Below are positions 3,345 to 41,587 of a stretch of 64,000 bases of DNA, piece by piece (the stretch's first letter is position 1; every line of letters begins with the position of its first letter). The stretch is from positions 21,132 to 85,131 of the IMG/VR virus record IMGVR_UViG_2648501152_000001. The stretch is one strand, 5' to 3'. The stretch is from a virus (Duplodnaviria; Caudoviricetes). The notes under the pieces are model-generated. The model was not told where the DNA came from. It ran no database searches and was given only the letters and a program-made list of their open reading frames with translations. The translations under genes and the position numbers were made by a program.

Positions 3345-4055
3345 ATGACACCGAAACCCTACTATCAGGACGACTTCGTGACCCTCTACCACGGGGACTA
3401 CAAAGAAATTGCGGAGAGCATGCCGGACGCATCGGCGGATTGTGTCATCACTGACCCGCCATACACGGACCGAACCCACACGAAGGCGAAGACCAACAAA
3501 GGCGCCGGCAATTCGCAGGCAATCGAATTCGCTCCGTTCAGCGATGACGATCTCACGCATGCGTTGATGCAGTGCGGTCGGATCTCGAAGCGGTGGGTCA
3601 TTGCATCACTCGACTACGCGCACGCATTCAGCCTCGATGCGAACCCGCCGGAGGGGTTGCGCTCGATGCGGGTCGGCGTATGGGTGAAAACAAACCCGAT
3701 GCCGCAGATTACTGGAGATAGGCCAGGCCAGGGGTGGGAGGCGATCTTGTTCATGCACAGGGCTGGGGTTAGGTCGACGTGGAATGGTGGCGGACGGTCG
3801 GGTGTGTGGACGTTCCCTGTGGTCCAGAACGCGGGTCATCCGACTTCTAAGCCGCTGGGAATGGTTTCGGAGTGGGTTCGTCTGTTCACGGACCCTGGCG
3901 GAACCGTGTTTGACCCGTTCGCTGGCAGTGGGACAACGTTGCGCGCCGCGAAGAACACTGGGCGCCGAGCGATCGGCGTGGAGCTGGAGGAACGCTACTG
4001 CGAGATCATCGCGCAGCGTTGCAGTCAAGAAGTGCTCGATTTCGGTATTGCGTAG
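3345..4055 (+). CDS. DNA N4-cytosine/N6-adenine methyltransferase (beta class), orphan
   Basis: TDPPY motif before HPTSKP and DPFAGSGTT SAM-binding motif. Confidence 0.9.
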   Translation: MTPKPYYQDDFVTLYHGDYKEIAESMPDASADCVITDPPYTDRTHTKAKTNKGAGNSQAIEFAPFSDDDLTHALMQCGRISKRWVIASLDYAHAFSLDANPPEGLRSMRVGVWVKTNPMPQITGDRPGQGWEAILFMHRAGVRSTWNGGGRSGVWTFPVVQNAGHPTSKPLGMVSEWVRLFTDPGGTVFDPFAGSGTTLRAAKNTGRRAIGVELEERYCEIIAQRCSQEVLDFGIA

Positions 4056-4386
4056 GAGGAATAATGCGGTACTTGCTCGGGATGTTTGCGGCAATTCTGG
4101 TGTCGGGTTACACGACGGTCAACCACATGACCAGGTTCGAAAGGCAGGGGCGGTGAAGTGAGGTGGCCGGGTGGAGCGTGTCGAGTATGCGGTGCGACGG
4201 GTGACGCGGGGCGGGGAAGTGTGGTGGCAACCCTATCCGTCCAGGATGGCAGCCGAACGTGAGCGGCGGGACGGCACAGTGGTGCGGCGTATCGTGACGA
4301 TCGGTGCGTGGATACCCGCATCGTCTTGTGTCATTGCCTAAACCCGTATACGATGAACGTGACCAGTAAACGGGGGAGGATTCATC

Positions 4387-4662
4387 GTGGGGCGTGACCC
4401 ATTCACCGACGCAGTATGCCGACAGGACGAGTGGTATGAGGATGCTGTGTTGCGGCGCGGGAATTTGTGGGACTGGAAGATCGGCGACGAGTCGGACACC
4501 GAACAAGCCGAACGCCACACCATCGCCGCGCAACTCTGCCGCACGTGCCCCAACTACCACGACCAGACTTGCGCCGACGAACACACACTCATGACCACCC
4601 ACTACGGCGAACACCCCGGCATTTGGGCCGGCACCCGACACACCCCCAAGGCAGACCAATGA
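4387..4662 (+). CDS. WhiB-like protein
   Basis: AVC...CRTCPNYHDQTC...GIWAG. Confidence 0.6.
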   Translation: MGRDPFTDAVCRQDEWYEDAVLRRGNLWDWKIGDESDTEQAERHTIAAQLCRTCPNYHDQTCADEHTLMTTHYGEHPGIWAGTRHTPKADQ

Positions 4663-5039
4663 CCTACCGCATCACCGTGGACATGCCGAGGCCCCCGCTC
4701 ACTTCGAACGATCAGCGGCGCGCACACTGGACGAAAGTCCGCAACGCCAAAGCGGAAGCCGCCAGCCAGATCATCACCCTCGTTAAACGCGACGGGATTC
4801 CGTTCATGCTGGACCGCGTGGACGTGACAGTCATCTGGTTCGCACCCGACGCACGTCGCCGCGACTCAGACTCACTCGGCCCCTACTGCAAGGCCGTTCT
4901 GGATGCGCTCGTCGAAGCAGGTGTGCTATGCGATGACGATTCCAGGTATGTCCGCCAAACGGCGATGAGAGTGGATACCGACCGTACGAATCCACGTATC
5001 GAAATTCTCATCGAACCCATCTACCAGGAGACAGCATGA
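4659..5039 (+). CDS. rusA: RusA-like Holliday junction resolvase
   Basis: ATG 4659; RRRDSDS...KAVLDALVEAGVLCDDD motif. Confidence 0.85.
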   Translation: MTYRITVDMPRPPLTSNDQRRAHWTKVRNAKAEAASQIITLVKRDGIPFMLDRVDVTVIWFAPDARRRDSDSLGPYCKAVLDALVEAGVLCDDDSRYVRQTAMRVDTDRTNPRIEILIEPIYQETA

Positions 5040-5293
5040 GCGAGGTTTCAGGCAACCCAACGACAGGCCGCACCACAGACCTGTTCGTCCTTTTCCTCGA
5101 CCACGAAAATGGTGTCGAGTTCCGCATGGGTGGCGAGTTCGACTACAACGCCAAGCGACGCGCATTCGCATACAGGAAGCCTGCAATCTCCTACGCCCGC
5201 AAGCATGGCGCGAAGGTAGCGCATATCGAGTTCCCGCCACGTGGCATTCCGGTCGTTGTCGGCGTGATCGACCCGAGTGAGGTTCCCGCATGA
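5036..5293 (+). CDS. hypothetical protein
   Basis: AGGAG RBS, ATGA coupling on both sides. Confidence 0.55.
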   Translation: MSEVSGNPTTGRTTDLFVLFLDHENGVEFRMGGEFDYNAKRRAFAYRKPAISYARKHGAKVAHIEFPPRGIPVVVGVIDPSEVPA

Positions 5294-5451
5294 CGGATGT
5301 TTCGGTGACGCAGTTGCGCCGGCACACCACAGACATCATCAACCGCGCCGCAGCAGGCGAACGTGTCCCGATCACCCGCAATGGTCGTGTGATCGCCTAC
5401 GCCATCCCCTACACCGACCTGATCCGACTCACCAACCTGGAGACCACATGA
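5290..5451 (+). CDS. Phd/YefM-family antitoxin-like protein (53 aa, orphan)
   Basis: Manual translation MTDVSVTQLRRHTTDIINRAAAGERVPITRNGRVIAYAIP matches the Phd/YefM N-terminal pattern; ATGA-coupled both sides; below ORF-track cutoff. Confidence 0.75.
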   Translation: MTDVSVTQLRRHTTDIINRAAAGERVPITRNGRVIAYAIPYTDLIRLTNLETT

Positions 5452-5651
5452 TGTGGGCGTTCCTCTACGTCGCAGGACTCATCGTGACGTGGGTCGGACT
5501 GATTCGCGTAACCAAAAAGCATGTGCCTGCCCATGACGTTCCTGACGAGATTGCGACCGTGTGGCTGTGTCTTCTCGCGGCTGCGGTGTGGCCGCTCACC
5601 GGGACTATCGCCGTCGTCTGGCATCTGACATTCAACTCTGAGGAGAAGTAA
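5448..5651 (+). CDS. small two-TM membrane protein
   Basis: Two hydrophobic stretches (MMWAFLYVAGLIV..., VWLCLLAAAVWPL). Confidence 0.6.
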   Translation: MMWAFLYVAGLIVTWVGLIRVTKKHVPAHDVPDEIATVWLCLLAAAVWPLTGTIAVVWHLTFNSEEK

Positions 5652-6788
5652 GTGAAGTTTCGTGTTGACCGTAAAGCGCTCGCGGACACCATCGCCGTTG
5701 TCGCGAAGAGTCTGCCGTCGAAGCCACCCACCCCGGTGCTCGCTGGCGTGAAGCTCACCGCCGATAGTGGGGTGTTGCGGGTGGAGGGTTTCGATTACGA
5801 AACGTCGACGCGGGCGCATGTGGTGGCGGACGTGCTGGACGAAGGTAGCGTCCTGGTGTCGGGGAAGCTGTTGGCGGACATCACGAAAGCCCTCCCGCAG
5901 AAGCCCGTGGAGGTGTCGGTGGATGGTGCTCGTGTCGGGATCGTGTGCGGTAGCGCGAAGTTTTCCCTGCCCACGATGCCCGTCGCGGATTATCCGGCCC
6001 TGCCTAGTTTCCCTGCCACCACGGGTTCGCTGCCGACGGAGGTGTTCGAGACCGTGGTCGGGCAGGTTGCTGCGGCGGCGGGTAAGGATGACACTCTGCC
6101 GATGCTCACGGGCATCAAAGTCGAAGCCGAGAACGGGGAACTCACGCTCGCGGCGACGGATCGGTTCCGGCTCGCCATCCGCACCCTCGACTGGACGGGC
6201 GGCGACGTCAACGCTTTGATTCCCGCCAAAACTCTCGCCGATGTCGCCCGCAACGTGCCCACCGGCCTCGACAACGTGGATGTCGGGTTCCATGAGGGGC
6301 TGTTCGGTGCGGATACGGGGAATGTGTGGACGACGGCGCGGGTGTTGGATGCGGAGTTCCCGAAGTTCCGGCAGCTTCTCCCGACGGAGCATTCGGCGGT
6401 GGCGGGTGTGGACGTGCAGGAGCTGGCGGGCGCGGTGAAGCGCGTCGGCCTGGTCGCGGAACGCGGCGCACAAATCCGGCTCACGTTCGACGCGGGTTCG
6501 CTCACGGTCACCGCAGGAACCGACGGGGAGAGCAGTGCCGAGGAAACCCTGGCTGCCACGTTCGCCGGCGAACCATTGACCATCGCCTTCAACCCCGGCT
6601 ACCTCCTCGACGGACTCCACGTCATCGACACCGACCGGGTGCTGTTCGGATTCACCACACCGAATCGCCCGGCCACGCTGCGACCCGTCAGTGAGGACGT
6701 TCGGTACACAACCCGCGGACCGTATCAGCCACTCAGCACCGATTTCGTGTACCTGCTCATGCCCGTCCGACTCCCCAACACCAACTAG
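5652..6788 (+). CDS. dnaN: DNA polymerase III beta sliding clamp
   Basis: 378 aa; MKFRVDR, AATDRFRLA, IAFNPGYLLDGL, YLLMPVRL signatures of actinobacterial DnaN. Confidence 0.95.
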   Translation: MKFRVDRKALADTIAVVAKSLPSKPPTPVLAGVKLTADSGVLRVEGFDYETSTRAHVVADVLDEGSVLVSGKLLADITKALPQKPVEVSVDGARVGIVCGSAKFSLPTMPVADYPALPSFPATTGSLPTEVFETVVGQVAAAAGKDDTLPMLTGIKVEAENGELTLAATDRFRLAIRTLDWTGGDVNALIPAKTLADVARNVPTGLDNVDVGFHEGLFGADTGNVWTTARVLDAEFPKFRQLLPTEHSAVAGVDVQELAGAVKRVGLVAERGAQIRLTFDAGSLTVTAGTDGESSAEETLAATFAGEPLTIAFNPGYLLDGLHVIDTDRVLFGFTTPNRPATLRPVSEDVRYTTRGPYQPLSTDFVYLLMPVRLPNTN

Positions 6789-7304
6789 GAGACAACCGTG
6801 AAGGTTCGGGAACTTCTCGAAAAGCTGTCAGGACTTGACCTGGACACGGAGGTGCTACTCATTCCAGCCAAGTCATCGGGTGTGTCAGATCGGCCCCGCG
6901 TGCGCGTGGAGGACGGCGCCACCTCACGCTACGGGTACGTGCTCCCTGTGAGTCTGTACGGCGAGATGAGCGGGGATAGCCGACCTGTCGTTTGGATCAG
7001 CTAGTTCGTTTCGGGGCGGCATCCGTGTGGGTGTCGCCCCGAACCCCCATCGAAAGGAACCTTGTGGAGACACGCACCGAATGGTGGACCGTCGACACCC
7101 ACGGCACACGGGTGGCGGACGGCGCCACCCGCCAGGAAGCCCTCGCAAGTCACGAGGTATTGCGCCGGCAGATCGCACTACACCTCACTGAGATGCGGGT
7201 TTACGGAATCACATCGGGCATTCAACCGATCGAGAAGCCTGCTGGGGTGTTCTGCCGCACGTACACCACCACGGTGGTCGACAGTGAGATCGAGGAGCTG
7301 TGAC

Positions 7305-7529
7305 ATGAAGGATTTTCATGCGCGGATGCGATCCGCGACCGCGAAACCCCGGCCTGGCACCTCGCTGGTGGAGATGAAGGTGCGGGATTCTGTGCAGGAC
7401 TATCGGCACGCGCTGTCGGAGGCGGAGCATTTGATGCGGTTCGGTGTGCCGCGTGAGCAGGCGTTTGAGCGTGTGGGGTTGACGGTGGAGCAGGTTGTGA
7501 AGCGGGAATCACGGGAGCGTGCATCATGA
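7305..7529 (+). CDS. hypothetical protein
   Basis: GAGGAG RBS, ATG 7305, coupled to next. Confidence 0.5.
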   Translation: MKDFHARMRSATAKPRPGTSLVEMKVRDSVQDYRHALSEAEHLMRFGVPREQAFERVGLTVEQVVKRESRERAS

Positions 7530-36073: not shown

Positions 36074-37270
36074 ATGCCACTAACACCCAGCTTCGGGGAC
36101 AAGATAGCCGCGAAGATCGTCGCCCTGTATGCGGCAGGCGAGGAACAACTCTACCGGTTTCTCGCCAAGTCGTTGCAGGGGGAGCGGGGCACGGGTGCGA
36201 ATTGGGCTGCCCGCATGATCATCAAAGTCGGTCCGGTTCGGGTGGGTGTGCAACGCATCCTGGATCGGTTGCATGGTGAGTCGCGGGTGATGGTGACTGA
36301 GGCGATTCGGCAGGCGTGGGAGAACGGCAGGAATGCCGCCCTGGAGGATATTCCGGGTGAGCGTGTTCCGGTGTTCAACGTGGATGGTGCGTCGGCGCGG
36401 GCTGCGGAGGAGTTGAATCAGCGCCTGGTGGAGACTCGTCCGCGTGCCGCAGAATCCGCGTCGAACATCTACCGCCAGGTGATCGATGAAGTGACGCGGG
36501 ATGAGTCGATCACGTCGGAGGCGTCACGCAAGAGGTTGGTGCAGCGGGCGTTGGATCGGTTCGCGCGTGATGGGATCACGTCGTTCATCGATCAGCGTGG
36601 ACGCAACTACGACCTGGTCTCGTACACGGAGATGGCTGTGCGTGCCGCGGTGTCCGAAGGTGAGATCAACGCCTACATGCAGCAGTTGGTTGCGGCAGGA
36701 ATCGACCTCGTGGTGATCAGTGACGTGCCTCAGAGCTGTGCCCTTTGTGAACCCTTCGAGTCAAAGCTAGTTTCGATCACGGGCGCCACTCGCGCTGCAA
36801 TCTGGGTGGACCCTGAGACAGGGCGAACCCGTTCCGTTCCTGTGTTCTCCACGTTAGCGGAGGCCCGTGCCGCTGGACTGTGGCACCCTGGTTGCCGTCA
36901 CGTGGCGAAGGGTTGGACGCCGGATAGTCCGTTTCCGCCGCCGGCTGATCCGCCCGACCCCGAGGGATATAAGGCGACGCAGCGACTCCGGGCGTTGGAA
37001 CGGCGTGTGAGGCGTGAGAAGCGGGTGCTAGCGGCAGCGATGTCGCCGGAGGCGGAAACGGCGGCGCGGCGCAGGATTCGTGGTGTGCAAGCACAGATCC
37101 GTGACCATATTGCGCGTACGGGTGTGCAGCGTAGACGCGACCGCGAACAACTGCATCGGGGGTATGAGTCGACTCCGGATGCGCGTGCATTGAATGCCGA
37201 AAAGCGGACACAGCAACGGAAGACCGTGGATGAGTTGGTGGAGGAGATTCGCAGCGAGCGCGGACAGTAG
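36074..37270 (+). CDS. phage minor capsid protein
   Basis: YTEMAVR, C..C, GLWHPGCRH, QRLRALERRVR. Confidence 0.85.
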   Translation: MPLTPSFGDKIAAKIVALYAAGEEQLYRFLAKSLQGERGTGANWAARMIIKVGPVRVGVQRILDRLHGESRVMVTEAIRQAWENGRNAALEDIPGERVPVFNVDGASARAAEELNQRLVETRPRAAESASNIYRQVIDEVTRDESITSEASRKRLVQRALDRFARDGITSFIDQRGRNYDLVSYTEMAVRAAVSEGEINAYMQQLVAAGIDLVVISDVPQSCALCEPFESKLVSITGATRAAIWVDPETGRTRSVPVFSTLAEARAAGLWHPGCRHVAKGWTPDSPFPPPADPPDPEGYKATQRLRALERRVRREKRVLAAAMSPEAETAARRRIRGVQAQIRDHIARTGVQRRRDREQLHRGYESTPDARALNAEKRTQQRKTVDELVEEIRSERGQ

Positions 37271-37280
37271 GTGAACGCGA

Positions 37281-37314
37281 CGAAGCCCACGACCTGTGTG
37301 GATCGGGGGCTTCG
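37281..37314. terminator. hairpin between convergent genes
   Basis: CGAAGCCC...GGGCTTCG. Confidence 0.55.
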
Positions 37315-37371
37315 GTTCCTGGCGGGACACGATTGGGTTGCGCACGGTCGTTGGCCAGGAAAGTATTGGGG

Positions 37372-38148
37372 TTACTGCTCGTCGTAGAGCCGCTTCGATT
37401 CTACCCAAAGATCCTTCAGTATCGTCTTCGCCACCAGGCGCACAGCCATAGCGTGCTGGTGCCCGTCATTCCGCACCGAACCAACCTCCGCAGGCTTGCC
37501 CTTCTTCCCGCAGCGTACGCACTCCACCGCGTGAACAGAATCGGCATACTTGGCGCGGGCATCCCGATACACAGTCTCGTACGGGCTGGTCTTGAACTTC
37601 GGAACAGCCGACGCAATCACCCACGTGCGCTTCCGGGCATTCTCAGACCAGTTCGACTGCTGACCACGAGTACGGCGCGGAGCCGCACCGTTGCGCACAT
37701 CGAACCCGCAGTAAGCCCACAGTTCGCTCACCGTACGCGGACGCTCGTGCAGGTCGTTCCAGTACGGGTCGCCGATCGCCGCCAACAGGCGCGCAGACTG
37801 CTTCAACCCGAGACCAGAAGTGCTCGTCACGAACTTCCCCAGCGGGTGCATCTTCATGGCCTTCTCAAGGTTCTTCACCGCATCCTTCTCGGCCTGAACC
37901 ATCGCCTCAACCGTATCCGCCAACTTCACCACAACAGGATTGTCGTGGGTGAGCCCGAAACCGCGTTCCTCGCCATCCTTGTCGACCTCATCCAGTCCAC
38001 GGGTGAGGATGCGGATACGGTTCATGTTGGCGATTCGGACCGTTTCCAGGTCGTCTACCACGTCCGCGAGAGTGCCCAGCACCCCGTCGCGCAGCCAACC
38101 GCCAGTCTTGATCGAAGACAGGGTTACATTCGGTTCGGTCGTGGTCAC
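37372..38148 (-). CDS. TasA-like Nop-domain RNA-guided DNA-binding protein (IS110-related, no nuclease domain)
   Basis: Coiled coil (DLETVRIANMNR), HP...GLG...ARLLAAIGD, LWAYCG, APRR.RG...NW, H..A.R...K..LKDLW; lacks the IS110 N-terminal DEDD RuvC domain; adjacent to a dual-spacer array. Confidence 0.8.
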   Translation of the reverse strand: MTTTEPNVTLSSIKTGGWLRDGVLGTLADVVDDLETVRIANMNRIRILTRGLDEVDKDGEERGFGLTHDNPVVVKLADTVEAMVQAEKDAVKNLEKAMKMHPLGKFVTSTSGLGLKQSARLLAAIGDPYWNDLHERPRTVSELWAYCGFDVRNGAAPRRTRGQQSNWSENARKRTWVIASAVPKFKTSPYETVYRDARAKYADSVHAVECVRCGKKGKPAEVGSVRNDGHQHAMAVRLVAKTILKDLWVESKRLYDEQ

Positions 38149-38684
38149 TTCGGCTCCCTCAGGGTTGCGGCGACAGCTGCGGGCAGATCGGCGACGGTCT
38201 CGACGTTGTGCTTGAGCATGAGCGACTGCACCGCCGAGTAATAGTCAGCCCAGTGTGCGTTCTGTTCGATACGCGCCTGATATCCAGCGACCACGTGCGA
38301 GAGATCATCTGTGGTGCAGGAGCCGAACTTTTTGCGCTCGCCGGCGACGTAGATGGATGCTTGGAGGGCGCGTGCCCATGCGGATGCTGCGACGAGTCGT
38401 TTGGCGGAGCGTGCGGGGCGGCGGACTCCGCTGACGGTTTCCTGCTGGATGCTGGTGGGCGCGTTGTCGTCGGTGTCTCGGGTGGCGCGGATCGCTGACA
38501 GTCTGCTCTGGCCGACTTTGATGCGCACGTATTCTACGAGTGCTTGATGGTAGAACTCGTGGAGGAGACTGTCGGGGGTTTCGGTTGCGACGGCTGCCGC
38601 GATTTTGCGGGGGTCGACTTCGGTGGTGTTGTCGAGGTGCTGTCGCACGAATTGTGCGAGTGTGATGGTTTCCGTGGTGGTCAC
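38145..38684 (-). CDS. uncharacterised protein translationally coupled to the TasA-like gene
   Basis: GGAAGGA RBS, GTG start, GTGA overlap with the downstream gene; lies between array and TasA. Confidence 0.75.
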   Translation of the reverse strand: MTTTETITLAQFVRQHLDNTTEVDPRKIAAAVATETPDSLLHEFYHQALVEYVRIKVGQSRLSAIRATRDTDDNAPTSIQQETVSGVRRPARSAKRLVAASAWARALQASIYVAGERKKFGSCTTDDLSHVVAGYQARIEQNAHWADYYSAVQSLMLKHNVETVADLPAAVAATLREPK

Positions 38685-38705
38685 GGTTCATCCTTCCTGT
38701 TGGGT

Positions 38706-39272
38706 CCCGAAGCGTATGTGGTGTGGGTTTCTGGCTTCTCTTGGCTTCGGGAAGTTGAACCGGCAAGCGAGCATTGATTGGATCGCGTATAGACTTTGGC
38801 TTGCCGGAGTTTGGTTCCAGTCAGTCGAGGTGTGAATGGGTCACATCATGCACTTGGACTGACTGAAAGTTGGGTGCCACGCCAGCGGGCGGTGTTCGGG
38901 TATCGCAGTGCCGGTGGCTGGTGTGGCAAGTTGAATCCGCCGAACGGCAGTTTTTTGGGAACCGCATAGGAGATGGTTCGACGGAAGTTGAGTCCCCACA
39001 GCAGGACGTAATTGGGCATCGCTGCTTCTTTGGCTGTGGGTAAGTTGGGTCCGAAGACGGCGGGAGTTGCTTGGGTTCCGCGCGCGCGATGGCCGTCTTC
39101 GGAAGTTGAAACCCGCCGCAGAAACCGAATGGTGCTCGCGTCCTTGATGGCGGCGGGAAGATTGGTTCCGCAAGCGAGGTGTCCGTGGGTATCGCAGATG
39201 TCCTGGCTTGCGGAGGAATGAACACCGCACGCGATTTGCCATTGGGTTTCGAACCCTTCTTGGCGTGCGGTG
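38706..39272 (-). repeat. TIGR-type stem-loop guide RNA array, 10 units with two 9-nt spacers each
   Basis: Each unit is a unique 7-11 bp stem closing an exactly 32-nt core CCA-N9-(C/T/A)G-N3-(C/T/A)CC(A/G)-N9-(C/T)G; short linkers mostly ending CAACT(T). Confidence 0.9.
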
Positions 39273-39351
39273 AGATCGTGGGCAACTGTGTCGTGGGCGC
39301 TGTGTGTCATGTTCACTGCCGCTCCTTCCGTCGTGGTTGCCGTATAGCTAG

Positions 39352-39380
39352 ACAGTAACCAAGCATGCGGGTTCACGCAA
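39352..39380 (-). promoter_or_regulatory. promoter for the array/tas operon
   Basis: Minus strand TTGCGT-17-TACTGT. Confidence 0.65.
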
Positions 39381-39589
39381 CCCGTACAACGAAGAATCTT
39401 CGGATCAAGCCTCAGGCCTTTAATCGGCTTGACTCAAGGTGATAGACTTGATAACCGAGGCAGGGTTGTCCCCAAAACACCCCGCAATCCCCATGCCCCG
39501 AGTGGCATTCCCCGAACCCGCATTGCCCTGGTGGCGCGCGGGTTTTCTCGTTCCCGGCCCGGAGCCGGCTCCCGAGGAGACAACTTCAT

Positions 39590-40348
39590 ATGGCCGACGA
39601 AGCCACCCCGACCGAAACCACCGTCACAGAGACCGTGGCAGAGGACACCACCCCCGTTGCCGAAACCGCCGGCGGTGCTGATCAGACCGCAGAGAACACC
39701 GACAACACCACCCAGGTCGACACCCCCGAGGCAGAGACCGACACCCCCGCAGACGAACCCGAAGAGCGCACCTACACCAAGGCCGAACTCGACAAGGTCA
39801 AGCGGGAAGCACAGAAACTCCGCCAGCGCCTGAAGGACGAAACCGAGGCTGCCGCCAAGGCCGCTGCCGAGGCATCCGAAAAGGCCATTGCGGAGCGAAT
39901 CGGGAAGGCCCTCGGGCTCATCCCCGAAGAGAACGACCAGCCTGTCGACCCCGCCGTGCTCCTCGAGCAGGCCGCGGAGCGCGAAGCGCAGATCGCCAAC
40001 GAGCGTGACGCAGCCCGCGCCGAAATCGCCGCCTACCGGCTCGAACAGGCACTCACCAAGGCCGCCAACAATGTAGACGGCGACCTCGACATCCTCGTTC
40101 CCTACCTTCGCGGTACGGGAGCACTCGACAAGCTCGACCCCACTGCCGACGACTACAACGCCCAGGTGGCCGAAATCGTCACGCACGCAGTCGAAGCGAA
40201 CGCCAAGCTGGAGAAGGCGGCCCCGGTGGCTGCTCCTGCACGCAGCGGAGGCGACCTCAACGGCGGAACCGGCGCACCCAAGCGCGGACCCAAATCCGTC
40301 GAAGACTTCATCCGCGAAGCCCGCGAAAAGCGCGCCCGCGACCTCTGA
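39590..40348 (+). CDS. capsid scaffolding protein
   Basis: Acidic N-terminus, coiled coil, RSGGD near C-terminus; directly upstream of MCP. Confidence 0.85.
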   Translation: MADEATPTETTVTETVAEDTTPVAETAGGADQTAENTDNTTQVDTPEAETDTPADEPEERTYTKAELDKVKREAQKLRQRLKDETEAAAKAAAEASEKAIAERIGKALGLIPEENDQPVDPAVLLEQAAEREAQIANERDAARAEIAAYRLEQALTKAANNVDGDLDILVPYLRGTGALDKLDPTADDYNAQVAEIVTHAVEANAKLEKAAPVAAPARSGGDLNGGTGAPKRGPKSVEDFIREAREKRARDL

Positions 40349-40364
40349 CTCTTAGGAGACCATC

Positions 40365-41282
40365 GTGGTCAATACCTTTCTCACCCCTGACGTTATCGCC
40401 GCCAAGGCTCTCGCCACCCTCTACGAGAACCTCACCATGCTGCCCCTCGTCTACACCGACGTGTCCAGCGACTTCTCGCGCAGCAAGGTCGGCTCCGTTG
40501 TGAACGTGCGCAAGCCCGCCACCTTCACCGCGAACGAGTTCGATCGCGCCTCTGGCATCACCATCCAGAACGCCACCGAGTCCAGCGTCCCGGTCACCCT
40601 GGACAAGATCGCCGACGTGTCGTTCGCCGTCACCTCTGAGGATCTCACCCTGCACCTCGAGGACTTCGCGGCGCAGCTCCTCGCCCCCGCCACCGAAGCC
40701 ATCGCCCAGAAGATTGATCGGGACATCCTCGCCCTCAAGTCGAACGTCACCCAGGTTGCGGGCACCGGCACCGGCTTCGAGTGGACCAAGCCCGAGGCGC
40801 TGATCGAGGCGGATCGTCTCCTCAACATCAAGAACGTTCCCCCGTCGGAGCGCGCCGCTGTTGTTGGCCCCACCACGCGGGCGAACTGGCTGAACAGCGA
40901 CATCATCAAGTTCGCTGACAAGTCCGGCTCCACCGATGCGCTGCGTCGCGGTTCGATCGGTTCGGGCCTGTTCGGGTTCGATGCCTACATGACGCAGAAC
41001 GTTGCGCAGCCGGCTCAGTCCCCGGCGTCGGGTGAGCCGACCACCGAGGTTGGTGTTGCGTTCCACAAGACCGCGTTCGCGTTCGCGTCGGCTCCGCTGG
41101 CACTCCCGTCGGACACCGGCGAGTGGGCTGCCACCCAGTCCTACAAGGGCCTGAACCTGCGTGTCGTCAAGAGCTACGACATCTCGAAGAAGCAAGATGT
41201 GATTTCCGTGGATGTTCTCTACGGTGTCGATGTTCTGGATGCGAACCGCGCTGTTCTGCTGCGTGGCGCTCTCGCTGCCTGA
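40365..41282 (+). CDS. major capsid protein (P22 coat-like)
   Basis: NTFLTP..IA..AL, V.VRKP, AFHK.AFA, DVLYGV. Confidence 0.9.
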   Translation: MVNTFLTPDVIAAKALATLYENLTMLPLVYTDVSSDFSRSKVGSVVNVRKPATFTANEFDRASGITIQNATESSVPVTLDKIADVSFAVTSEDLTLHLEDFAAQLLAPATEAIAQKIDRDILALKSNVTQVAGTGTGFEWTKPEALIEADRLLNIKNVPPSERAAVVGPTTRANWLNSDIIKFADKSGSTDALRRGSIGSGLFGFDAYMTQNVAQPAQSPASGEPTTEVGVAFHKTAFAFASAPLALPSDTGEWAATQSYKGLNLRVVKSYDISKKQDVISVDVLYGVDVLDANRAVLLRGALAA

Positions 41283-41298
41283 TCCCCTTCACTAGCTT

Positions 41299-41332
41299 CC
41301 GCGGCGCCATGACTTCGGTTGTGGCGCCGCGG
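41299..41332 (+). terminator. terminator hairpin after MCP
   Basis: CCGCGGCGCCA...TTCG...TGGCGCCGCGG. Confidence 0.65.
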
Positions 41333-41347
41333 TTGTGAGGAGACATT

Positions 41348-41587
41348 GTGTCGTTTGTTTACCGCTATACGGGTTCCGATCAGGATTTGACGGTGCGTTC
41401 GGATGTGCGCCGCTATGACCTGGAGGAGTGGGCGTGCTGGGAGCGAGTCTCGGAGGCTGAGGTGAAGCCCGCCAAGGCTGAGCCTGTCGCTGTCGAGGCT
41501 GAGCAGCCGGTTGTGGAGGACAAGCCCGCAGAGGCCCCGAAGCGCCGCACCCGCCGCAAGCCCGCCGGCACCGAGGTTGAGGACTAG
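41348..41587 (+). CDS. hypothetical virion-region protein
   Basis: GAGGAG RBS. Confidence 0.55.
   Translation: MSFVYRYTGSDQDLTVRSDVRRYDLEEWACWERVSEAEVKPAKAEPVAVEAEQPVVEDKPAEAPKRRTRRKPAGTEVED

Follow-up and report, generated by a model that had tools for sequence, protein, structure and literature searches.

A predicted stem-loop TIGR-TasA cassette between the head genes of an actinophage, with near-matches of its guides in sibling phages

First described in 2025, TIGR-Tas systems are under development as compact genome tools. As far as the available text of the source papers goes, their stem-loop branch includes PlTasA, from a Peromyscus leucopus gut contig (Faure et al. 2025, PMC12045711; Guan et al. 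2026, bioRxiv 10.64898/2026.08.11.744272), as well as BlTasA and MbTasA (Xu et al. 2026, bioRxiv 10.64898/2026.09.09.750476). According to the accessible parts of these papers, the TIGR transcript is cut near CUU at the stem bases, the reported processing boundary (Xu et al. 2026, bioRxiv 10.64898/2026.09.09.750476), which releases single hairpins, the tigRNAs, each ~50 nt long. One tigRNA is then gripped by a dimer of TasA through box C (CCA) and box D (YG), with spacer A pairing one DNA strand and spacer B the other. The solved TaTasR and PlTasA complexes hold 9 + 9 = 18 bp of designed targets, and the published TIGR-Tas biology papers, in the portions available, call the natural targets and the origin of the spacers unknown.

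The locus described here lies in an 85-kb actinophage genome, of which 64,000 nucleotides form the window, that is, the whole stretch of DNA that was analysed. Like PlTasA, BlTasA and MbTasA, it is phage-borne and combines a nuclease-less Nop-domain protein with units in which a 9-nt loop separates the two spacers, the stems covary while differing in sequence, and CUU marks the stem base. Unlike in many related loci, whose units are embedded in the tas ORF, the array is wholly intergenic, with one unit behind tasA. A 179-aa partner gene directly upstream of tasA also sets it apart from the stem-loop TasA loci covered by the available text, and its candidate sites are best described as 17 bp in which the spacers share the middle base pair, in contrast to the 18 bp of the solved PlTasA complex. 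With the dual-repeat TIGR-TasR and TIGR-TasH systems (TaTasR, 9mty; SpTasH of Salicola phage CGphi29, 9w03 and 21kl) it shares a homologous Nop core, CCA and YG anchors and the logic of tandem spacers. However, it has no conserved edge repeat, every stem being different and the loop element semi-conserved, and no RuvC or HNH domain.

Further likenesses are those to the IS110/IS621 bridge-RNA recombinases, which have a related Nop-like fold (Foldseek to ISCro4 and IS621, E ~3e-4) and bipartite guides, and to archaeal box C/D sRNPs, which also have a Nop-like fold (the Foldseek match to Nop5 is weak). Unlike the former, the locus encodes no DEDD/RuvC-like or serine recombinase domain; unlike the latter, it has no fibrillarin or L7Ae partner. 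Box C/D sRNAs carry RUGAUGA and CUGA boxes and a k-turn, with L7Ae, Nop5 and fibrillarin as partners. The boxes here are CCA and YG, and no Rfam C/D family matched, so this assignment was rejected. A CRISPR array was similarly discarded: repeat finders gave no identical 25-36-nt direct-repeat family, and the neighbours are tasA, an uncharacterised gene and head genes.

The hairpin array and its Tas protein

An earlier note on this DNA had described ten hairpin units. Reading in register places ten units on the minus strand at 38705-39272, and all 20 of the 20 spacers are identical to those it listed, with the stem ends of units 5, 8 and 10 shifted by 1-3 nt. The count of ten was incomplete, however: an eleventh, overlooked unit at 37316-37361 was detected by a motif and stem scan over the entire 85-kb genome. 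The features assigned, with plus-strand spans for the units of the array, are as follows.

38705..39272, minus strand: stem-loop TIGR array, units 1-10 (register reading, covariation, RNA fold)
39223-39272, 39167-39214, 39112-39157, 39050-39103, 38993-39042, minus strand: array units 1-5
38936-38985, 38875-38928, 38815-38868, 38760-38807, 38705-38752, minus strand: array units 6-10
37316..37361, minus strand: eleventh tigRNA unit, 3' of tasA (stem TTCCTGG/CCAGGAA, spacers ACGACCGTG and ATCGTGTCC)
37372..38148, minus strand: tasA, 258-aa nuclease-less Tas protein with coiled coil and Nop domain

In each unit a variable covarying stem surrounds CCA, 9 nt, YGnnnnCCR, 9 nt and YG. The 32-nt core, claimed to be invariant, is constant in length and in the positions of its motifs but not in sequence, identical letters being confined to 7 of the 32 columns: the three of CCA, the G and the CC of the loop, and the last G. 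Box C CCA and the box D YG after spacer B are found in 11/11 units, as is a loop of 9 nt. YG opens the loop in 10/11, unit 10 having AG at this box D. CTT is found at the base of the 5' arm in eight of the 11 units and is missing from units 1, 2 and 9. Published stem-loop TIGR descriptions, in their available parts, agree with these units (PMC12045711; bioRxiv 10.64898/2026.09.09.750476).

The eleven stems are all different in sequence and 7-11 bp long. They were said to differ yet stay complementary, which is borne out: 84.5% of 110 cells pair, against 49.2% after shuffling (reached by 0/500 shuffles), and pairing falls to 24-51% when the 3' partner is slid. Both-sided changes occur in 10/10 stem pairs, 76 of the 77 cells in the inner 7 pairs are paired, and the covariation score is 0.935 versus 0.223 in shuffles (0/500 as high). 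The predicted fold of the 601-nt RNA consists of ten hairpins (z = -6.5; 0/20 shuffles fold as well). Tandem Repeats Finder misses the array, as the earlier note had expected, and Rfam gave no match reaching threshold in the window. The spacers are indeed AT-richer than the genome (51% versus 61% GC, P ~0.001 against random 9-mers). A covariance model built on the units recovers 10/11 training units at E <= 2e-9, unit 10 not being returned; unit 11 scores E = 1.9e-11, though it is itself a training row. Contigs of run X1 cover the tasA and partner bins but scarcely or not at all those of the array, a gap in cover that carries no weight as evidence.

TasA scores 220.9 bits with the NCBIfam model NF052498 ('TIGR-Tas system RNA-guided endonuclease'), whose cut-off is 100, over model positions 1-214 of 215 and TasA residues 24-251. 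By sequence, its PDB matches are 9mty (E = 6e-15) and TasH (E = 1.6e-9). The predicted model (pLDDT 88.9) contains only the coiled coil and Nop helices, and Foldseek ranks TasR and TasH best (TM 0.65-0.71), with IS110-family recombinases next. The Pfam search returned no nuclease domain (HNH or RuvC) and no domain match at all for TasA. Without RuvC or HNH, the protein is expected to bind without cutting. A 98%-identical TasA is encoded on another contig (P0003). Close TasA relatives were not found by a single-protein scan of the genome and viral contigs; an alignment-based search gave 19 genome loci. A motif scan identified units of the same type, beside tas or within it, in 20/21 related loci. 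The covariance model placed units in 19/21 tas loci (89 matches, each on the same strand as tas); three loci lacking tas gave no match.

That the hairpins are terminators, attenuators or a REP-like repeat rather than guides is scarcely credible. G+C-rich hairpins are present, with nothing further in favour of this reading, while the adjoining Tas protein passes a curated model, units accompany tas in nearly all the related loci, and a consensus scan of 37200-39650 gave no terminator-like site. The earlier description of a dual-spacer guide array that conserves structure over repeat sequence matches the published stem-loop TIGR arrays, and the cognate Tas lies 560 nt downstream. The hairpins almost certainly form a genuine guide-RNA array of the stem-loop TIGR-TasA type, a known kind.

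The inserted cassette and its partner gene

The array and tasA belong to a 2.2-kb insertion that is absent from sibling phage contigs. The contig of a cassette-less sibling, L087, aligns to 36962-37181 and then to 39404-41473. In a 19,053-nt contig of run X4, position 37181 is joined to 39417 with 37 other letters between, and in Gordonia phage Cafasso just 137 bp separate the minor-capsid and scaffold genes. In the 85-kb actinophage the cassette therefore separates the minor-capsid gene from the scaffold gene, and it runs antisense to them.

37182..39403, no strand: inserted cassette (unit 11, tasA, partner gene, array, putative promoter), right edge between 39403 and 39416
36074..37270, plus strand: minor capsid (MuF-like) gene, Pfam PF06152, E = 4e-35
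38145..38684, minus strand: partner protein, 179 aa, no known fold, PHROG 4604, E = 2e-29
39352..39380, minus strand: putative cassette promoter, TTGCGT (39380-39375), 17 nt, TACTGT (39357-39352), inferred, read by eye
39590-40348, plus strand: scaffold-like gene, assigned by position in comparison with Cafasso
40365-41282, plus strand: major capsid gene, Pfam PF11651, PHROG 283

The final 89 nt of the minor capsid gene lie within the cassette, the junction being at 37181. For the putative promoter, the consensus scan of 37200-39650 returned no sigma-70-type match. The same cassette type is found in 78 well-studied mycobacteriophages, beside the immunity repressor, where sibling phages have superinfection-immunity genes in the slot.

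The stop of the partner gene overlaps the start of tasA (GTGA). A member of the partner family lies directly upstream of tas in 21/21 related loci and in phage Euphoria, and in 0/3 cassette-less controls; the family has 2,368 cluster representatives at E <= 0.001. No match to the partner was found in Pfam, NCBIfam or PDB by sequence, nor in PDB by fold (best E = 1.4). In BFVD it matched only uncharacterised mycobacteriophage proteins, and no match in the ESM Atlas exceeded 0.86. TasParB-TasA operons (Faure et al. 2025), as presented in the available text, likewise place TasA in an operon with a small partner gene. Unlike this locus they carry dual-repeat arrays, and a TasParB-type partner was rejected here, no ParB match being found in Pfam or in PDB by sequence or fold.

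Candidate target sites and their geometry

Adjacent 9+9 matches had been proposed as the signature of targets. In the head regions of 31 relatives (460 kb), paired matches do exceed chance, but not as adjacent 9-mers: when true and permuted spacer pairs were compared, only an arrangement of 17 bp, in which the spacers overlap by one base pair, was enriched. At <=2 mismatches there are 5 sites versus 0.5 for permuted pairs (P = 0.024), at <=3 mismatches 33 versus 13.3 (P = 0.008), and at <=4 mismatches 285 versus 150.8, a count reached in 0/5,000 permutations. The 18-bp, 16-bp, 19-bp, inverted 18-bp and collinear arrangements stayed at chance level in these regions. Against the 17-bp reading, the inverted form of that arrangement also gave two 1-mismatch sites, for unit 3 in L028 and for unit 11 in L032, versus 0.0 expected (P = 0.008). 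In 8/11 units here the ninth base of spacer A is the complement of that of spacer B; this holds for 46/113 units of relatives, where 27.8 +/- 4.5 are expected (P = 5e-5), and the use of the two spacers on opposite strands fits the candidate sites. We lean towards the view that natural sites are 17 bp long, both ninth spacer bases reading one central pair.

In the 2.1 kb beside the empty site of L087, four of the 11 guides have sites with 1-3 mismatches. Over the 2.35 kb of this one sequence, to which the comparison with a cassette-less sibling is confined, the true pairs give 4 sites at <=3 mismatches versus 0.1 expected from 110 permuted pairs; in Cafasso the counts are 18 versus 6 (P = 0.00085). 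The four sites lie 5' of the scaffold gene, in the scaffold gene, at the start of the capsid gene and in its 3' part, so that the scaffold and major capsid genes contain three of the four. The copies in the phage's own genome are as follows.

39433..39449, minus strand: unit-9 site, intergenic, 16-30 nt from the right junction; 4 mismatches, sibling 2
39831..39847, plus strand: unit-3 site in the scaffold gene, codons K-D-E-T-E; 2 mismatches, sibling 1
40365..40381, minus strand: unit-1 site, first 17 nt of the major capsid ORF; 4-5 mismatches, sibling 2-3
41187..41203, plus strand: unit-5 site in the major capsid gene, codons K-K-Q-D-V; 3 mismatches, the same 3 in the sibling

The unit-1 site has 2 mismatches in relatives L029, L030 and L093, the last of these sites being the one added by a search of 401 genomes of one actinobacterial family, which gave four prophage head-gene matches, all ~70% identical. 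The unit-5 site has 2 mismatches in L038, L041 and L043. Codon phase with the gene is kept at three sites, and at those of units 3 and 5 the encoded peptide is identical to that of the phage. The sites reappear at homologous positions, aligned with the start codon or the reading frame, in the phage's genome, in the sibling and in as many as 11 relatives. Of the suggested foreign or promoter-like targets, foreign ones fit the head genes of sibling phages; promoter-like applies only loosely, to the one site upstream of the scaffold gene. Against a guide role, the earlier note had set spacers identical in all relatives together with paired matches at random level. We found that sibling contigs carry diverged array segments and that pairs above chance exist.

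It is very unlikely that these near-matches are the product of chance and codon bias, with the targets of the system simply left unplaced. Several arrangements and thresholds were tried, the loci of the relatives are mutually homologous, so that counts are not independent, and 17.8% of coding 17-mers from the phage's own genome reach <=2 mismatches in relatives; given this rate, the 3/11 guides that do so are not significant alone. Such a reading does not account for the excess in L087 and Cafasso or for the recurrence of homologous site positions in register. The case for targets rests, at the level of sequence, on the permuted-pair controls and the homologous positions of the sites.

Self-targeting by an 18-bp rule was rejected, the best sites in the 85-kb genome having 3-4 mismatches, equal to permuted pairs. 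The target reading extended poorly to other phages: when each of 21 relatives was searched with its units over its own 10-kb locus, the 17-bp arrangement gave 10 sites versus 5 expected, a weak enrichment, and the five guides of the cluster A mycobacteriophage Euphoria stayed at chance level against its own right arm and that of Solon, a cluster A phage without the cassette. It is distinctly unlikely that the guides regulate the phage's own head genes, with TasA on imperfect own sites repressing late genes during lysogeny or early infection. The best 17-bp sites of the genome (units 3, 5, 9 and 1) do fall in or beside the scaffold and capsid genes adjoining the cassette, which is antisense to the late operon, and TasA proteins are known as repressors, according to the available text. 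However, the own sites, with 2, 3, 4 and 4-5 mismatches, are equal to or worse than those of the cassette-less sibling, whereas a self-regulatory guide and its site should co-evolve and stay matched. Own and sibling sequences differ at 8/68 site positions, against a background of 4.7% (P = 0.015), and the sibling allele is the guide-matching one at 6/7 informative positions. Moreover, the own capsid gene starts with GTG GTC where 21/21 relatives have ATG/TTG GCx; the two changes are unique among 22 sequences and fall exactly within the unit-1 site.

These differences do not prove selected escape, as mostly synonymous differences are also expected from plain coding divergence. In the own genome, both mismatches of the unit-3 site are at third codon positions, and the three of the unit-5 site are all synonymous third positions.

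No exact target was found, and seven of the 11 guides have no convincing site. Exact 18-mers of units 2, 8 and 5 matched 1, 3 and 0 viral contigs in IMG/VR; the three come from one virus of 46-48% GC, which places the result at chance level. Exact 17-mers of units 5, 1 and 3 matched 12, 1 and 15 contigs, and these are background, as 0/28 encode a homologue of five head proteins. The lack of an exact target and the unplaced guides favour another reading, in which the similarity to head genes is a fossil of spacer origin from neighbour or sibling DNA and the present targets are elsewhere, in the host, mobile elements or unrelated phages. The spacers being AT-richer than the phage, and natural targets being not yet assignable according to the available text of the published TIGR-Tas papers, point the same way. 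We consider it unlikely: it leaves unexplained why the arrangement with both spacers on one duplex is the sole one enriched, and why complementary ninth bases have persisted among the 113 units from relatives. The guides are probably directed at the head genes of sibling phages, and the near-matches suggest, from sequence comparison, where the natural targets of such systems may lie.

A possible role in excluding sibling phages

If so, at least units 9, 3, 1 and 5 would be aimed at the head-gene region of close cassette-less phages. TasA being nuclease-less, the bound complex would form a transcriptional roadblock, as in published relatives, and the cassette would shut down capsid production of a co-infecting or superinfecting sibling. 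The carrier would escape through the 2-5 mismatches in its own copies of the sites. We tentatively propose that the cassette may be an RNA-guided allele-exclusion element, in which TasA roadblocks act on the siblings' cassette-less allele with 17-bp shared-centre geometry, a recognition mode that has not been described for TIGR-Tas in the available text, mismatches protect the carrier, and the partner is a new accessory factor of this clade. It is conceivable, too, that replication stalls at bound complexes and that the rival more readily acquires a copy of the cassette, amounting to a nuclease-free drive.

Homing-endonuclease marker exclusion and phage-borne CRISPR against rivals are analogous mobile cassettes aimed at the alleles of cassette-less relatives. 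As in marker exclusion, the carrier's own alleles would be protected, here by mismatches; unlike it, the locus encodes no nuclease, and exclusion would act through binding.

The mobile cassette, the conserved partner and the candidate targets go beyond the published accounts in their available parts, although the TIGRFinder tables of Xu et al. may list the clade, the partner gene or the phage itself. The locus yields a testable hypothesis, that the guides act on cassette-less sibling phages, at their head genes and their vacant insertion site. With the cassette type in 78 mycobacteriophages of a laboratory host, and siblings with superinfection-immunity genes in the slot, bench tests are feasible. 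The partner, conserved in 21/21 loci and belonging to a large family with a fold without known match, is an addition to the picture of TIGR-TasA. Finally, our results suggest that targets in this actinophage clade follow a 17-bp rule with a shared centre, and such a rule, if true, would change both the search for natural targets and the programming of these TasA proteins.

The locus and its family

The array of ten hairpin units and the TasA protein encoded beside it belong to the known TIGR-TasA kind, and every defining feature that could be tested was found. The array is followed downstream by two genes of the same orientation. The elements of the locus are:

37182 to ~39403, inserted cassette of 2.2 kb, holding unit 11, tasA, the 179-aa gene, the array and a promoter-like motif
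37316-37361, extra unit (unit 11) behind the protein genes, from a motif and stem scan of the whole 85-kb genome
37372-38148, minus (array strand), tasA, 258 aa, assigned by NCBIfam, PDB sequence and fold
38145-38684, minus, partner gene, 179 aa
38705-39272, minus, stem-loop array of ten units in register, read from the sequence
39380-39352, promoter-like TTGCGT-17-TACTGT, putative, read by eye

A unit begins with the 5′ arm of its stem and CCA; two 9-nt spacers, A and B, then flank a 9-nt loop (YGnnnnCCR, with AG in place of YG in unit 10), and YG and the 3′ stem arm close it. Successive units are set apart by 7-10 nt of linker, of the form (A/T)yCAACTT. All 20 spacers listed in the earlier note were reproduced on re-reading the minus strand; of its "invariant 32-nt core", the constant length holds and the constant sequence does not (7/32 columns invariant). 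The stems (7-11 bp) are all different and each is complementary, as had been claimed: 84.5% of cells are paired vs 49.2% in shuffles, none of 500 reaching the observed value, and sliding the 3′ partner by 1-3 columns leaves 24-51% paired. For the inner seven stem pairs the figure is 76 of 77 cells, and changes on both sides were seen at 10/10 stem pairs. The array RNA folds into ten hairpins (z = -6.5). Tandem Repeats Finder did not detect the array, as the same note had predicted, and the array had no match in Rfam. Scanning the whole 85-kb genome for motif plus stem gave one unit beyond the ten. A covariance model built from the 11 units returned 10 of them at E <= 2e-9 (unit 10 was not returned), a recovery of training units that is by construction; nothing else in the window scored below E = 0.4. 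CTT stands at the stem base in 8/11 units. A strong ribosome-binding site, GGAAGGAG (39329-39322, minus strand), is followed by GTG (39316) and ATG (39310) codons, whose frame spans units 1-7 and stops at 38846 (38846-39329, minus strand), a putative ORF; comparable unit-coded stretches were taken into the tas ORF in the annotations of relatives.

The 258-aa protein scores 220.9 bits (cut-off 100), over model positions 1-214 of 215, against NCBIfam NF052498 ("TIGR-Tas system RNA-guided endonuclease"), a curated model that already exists for this protein family. In sequence comparison with PDB, its matches include the TasR chain of the solved structure 9mty (E = 6e-15) and chains of TasH (E = 1.6e-9). 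The ten best PDB fold matches of its AlphaFold model (pLDDT 88.9) are TasR and TasH (TM 0.63-0.71), followed by IS110-family recombinases. No nuclease domain was found in the 258-aa protein, which is therefore a TasA. In the published TasR structure, CCA serves as box C and UG as box D (PMC12045711). A preprint on 2,559 stem-loop arrays reports that most loops are 9 nt long, that a CUU motif at the base of the stem marks the processing boundary, and that TasA represses transcription (bioRxiv 10.64898/2026.09.09.750476).

Partner gene and related loci

Among 2,637 candidates, 1,430 TasA homologues were found at E <= 0.001, some already labelled TIGR-Tas proteins by NCBI. TasA was found in 93 phage records (83 Mycobacterium, 5 Gordonia, 2 Salicola, and 1 each of Arthrobacter, Rhodococcus and Microcystis). 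In the motif scan, 20 of 21 fetched loci had similarly built units next to or within tas, and a few low-stem matches lay away from it; the covariance model found units in 19 of the 21. Its 89 hits all share the strand of tas, and three loci lacking tas gave no hit. The two exceptions are L015 (covariance model) and L003 of Tsukamurella soli (both methods). The latter (4038-5768) holds the closest named TasA, at 62% identity, with the partner gene present and no unit found within 5 kb; its guides may have another motif or another location.

The 179-aa partner matches PHROG 4604; neither sequence nor fold comparison linked it to any Pfam, NCBIfam or PDB entry, and in BFVD it matches uncharacterised mycobacteriophage proteins alone. 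A partner-family ORF was found by profile search directly upstream of tas in 21/21 loci and in mycobacteriophage Euphoria; the profile has 12 members, and 11 of these loci gave training rows, the other 11 being independent. It found nothing in phage Solon, the cassette-less sibling contig L087 or the cassette-less Gordonia phage Cafasso. The family counts 2,368 cluster representatives at E <= 0.001. A ParB-like partner is reported at some dual-repeat TasA loci (Faure et al., PMC12045711); unlike it, the 179-aa protein was not ParB-like in any test run. No description of the conserved partner was found by term search within the two main TIGR papers, whose supplements may contain further information, or in library searches on TIGR-Tas in mycobacteriophages and on natural targets of tigRNAs.

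In Euphoria, the partner gene comes first, followed by 335 nt with about five units and by tasA, 1.8 kb from the immunity repressor. A 4.4-kb query around this locus matched 413 records, 78 covering at least 80% of it; many of the remainder match the flanks only, and in several the slot carries a gene with a superinfection-immunity annotation. In cluster A mycobacteriophages the cassette (78 phages) lies between a Cas4-type exonuclease and the immunity repressor (Euphoria, 6014-7518), and in several siblings the slot is occupied by a gene with an Imm-like superinfection-immunity annotation or by an HNH endonuclease. In Gordonia phages Spooky and BENtherdunthat, the locus belongs to the early region and directly follows the genes for immunity repressor, cro and antirepressor; about ten units are distributed over the DNA upstream of an annotated 418-424-aa tas ORF, its 5′ part and its middle. 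In a prophage of Mycobacterium sp. PSTR-4-N (L019, 4792-4960), three adjacent units have common halves, one combining spacer A of the unit to its right with spacer B of the unit to its left. The pattern resembles the product of inter-unit recombination in the loop, a possible route to new spacer pairs.

Insertion of the cassette among head genes

The neighbouring genes of the 85,131-base virus record encode the portal, a MuF-like minor capsid protein, the scaffold and the major capsid protein, all on the plus strand. That the locus is a 2.2-kb insertion is seen from several relatives. Metagenome contig L087 aligns to 36962-37181 and then 39404-41473 at ~95% identity, the two parts being 24 nt apart. 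In a 19,053-nt contig of run X4, 37 other letters join 37181 to 39417; a contig of run X2 links 37181 to 39482; and Cafasso has 137 bp between the corresponding genes. No promoter was found in the cassette by a consensus scan. The left junction falls inside the 3′ end of the minor-capsid gene (37182-37270), so the last 29 codons and the stop of the MuF-like protein are inserted DNA, unlike the sibling's ending.

A contig of run X20 keeps tasA, then has 626 unlike letters in place of 38122-38739 and a diverged stretch of equal length at 38940-39030 within the array; sibling cassettes therefore vary in partner gene and guides. At the place of the partner gene, either the partner diverges much faster than tasA or it was replaced.

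Target geometry and candidate sites

TasR is reported to leave 8-nt 3′ overhangs, from which we infer a target strand reading spacer A and then the reverse complement of spacer B. Under this 18-bp rule, the best sites in the own genome had 3-4 mismatches, the same as permuted pairs, and searching IMG/VR for three exact 18-mers gave chance-level counts. The ninth bases of spacers A and B are complementary in 8/11 units here and in 46/113 distinct units of relatives (expected 27.8 +/- 4.5, permutation P = 5e-5). No other of the 81 position pairs shows complementarity this strong, and a 17-bp target in which the spacers share one central pair would be consistent with it.

Head regions of 31 relatives, fetched via the capsid protein (460 kb), contain an excess of paired near-matches in the 17-bp arrangement: 5 true vs 0.5 permuted at <=2 mismatches, 33 vs 13.3 at <=3, and 285 vs 150.8 at <=4, with 0/5,000 permutations as high. 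Among the arrangements listed, the excess was in 17 bp alone; the 18-, 16- and 19-bp, inverted 18-bp and collinear ones were at chance level in these relatives. With the 17-bp arrangement inverted, so that spacer A minus its first base follows the reverse complement of spacer B, two 1-mismatch hits were found vs 0.0 expected, for unit 3 (L028, 1720-1736) and unit 11 (L032, 15472-15488); the two places are not homologous to each other and had no counterpart in the own genome or the sibling. Against the 17-bp geometry counts that the solved TaTasR (PMC12045711) and PlTasA (bioRxiv 10.64898/2026.08.11.744272) complexes pair 9 + 9 bp on a designed 18-bp target, whereas the candidate sites here fit 17 bp.

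Near-match sites occupy homologous positions across relatives:

Unit 1: capsid ORF, nt 1-17, in phase with its start codon; 2-3 mismatches in seven relatives
Unit 3: scaffold codons K-D-E-T-E; own copy 2 mismatches, both at third codon positions; Cafasso 2
Unit 5: capsid codons K-K-Q-D-V; 2-3 mismatches in nine relatives; own copy 3, all synonymous
Unit 9: in L087, 30-46 nt from the empty junction

These four guides were placed at candidate sites and the seven others were not. In L087, all four true pairs have sites with <=3 mismatches, vs 0.1 expected from 110 permuted pairs, a comparison resting on 2.35 kb of one sibling. Mismatches in sibling vs own copy are 2-3 vs 4-5 (unit 1), 1 vs 2 (unit 3), 3 vs 3 (unit 5) and 2 vs 4 (unit 9). 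The two copies differ at 8/68 site positions (background 4.7%, P = 0.015), and the sibling allele is the guide-matching one at 6/7 informative positions (P = 0.06). Of 22 capsid starts compared, the own one alone reads GTG GTC, the rest having ATG or TTG and then GCx. No exact target was found in the sequences searched; exact 17-mers of units 5, 1 and 3 occur in 28 viral contigs, none with head-gene homologues. Against a null of coding-like 17-mers, 3/11 guides at <=2 mismatches is unremarkable, and the guide test in Euphoria was negative, with a small sample.

The comparison suggests that the guides are aimed at the head-gene region of siblings without the cassette. Candidate natural targets, a 17-bp geometry and insertion polymorphism of the cassette are all absent from the TIGR texts consulted. 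For relatives, published work describes transcripts processed at the base of the stem, one tigRNA held by a TasA dimer, two spacers pairing with opposite strands, and repression without cleavage. Here, the cassette would be transcribed from its own putative promoter, opposite to the late operon, and TasA would be loaded with guides for the head-gene region of cassette-less sibling phages. Roadblocks upstream of the scaffold gene, within it, at the capsid start codon and near the capsid end would keep a rival from making heads, and the carrier's own sites would escape through 2-5 mismatches.
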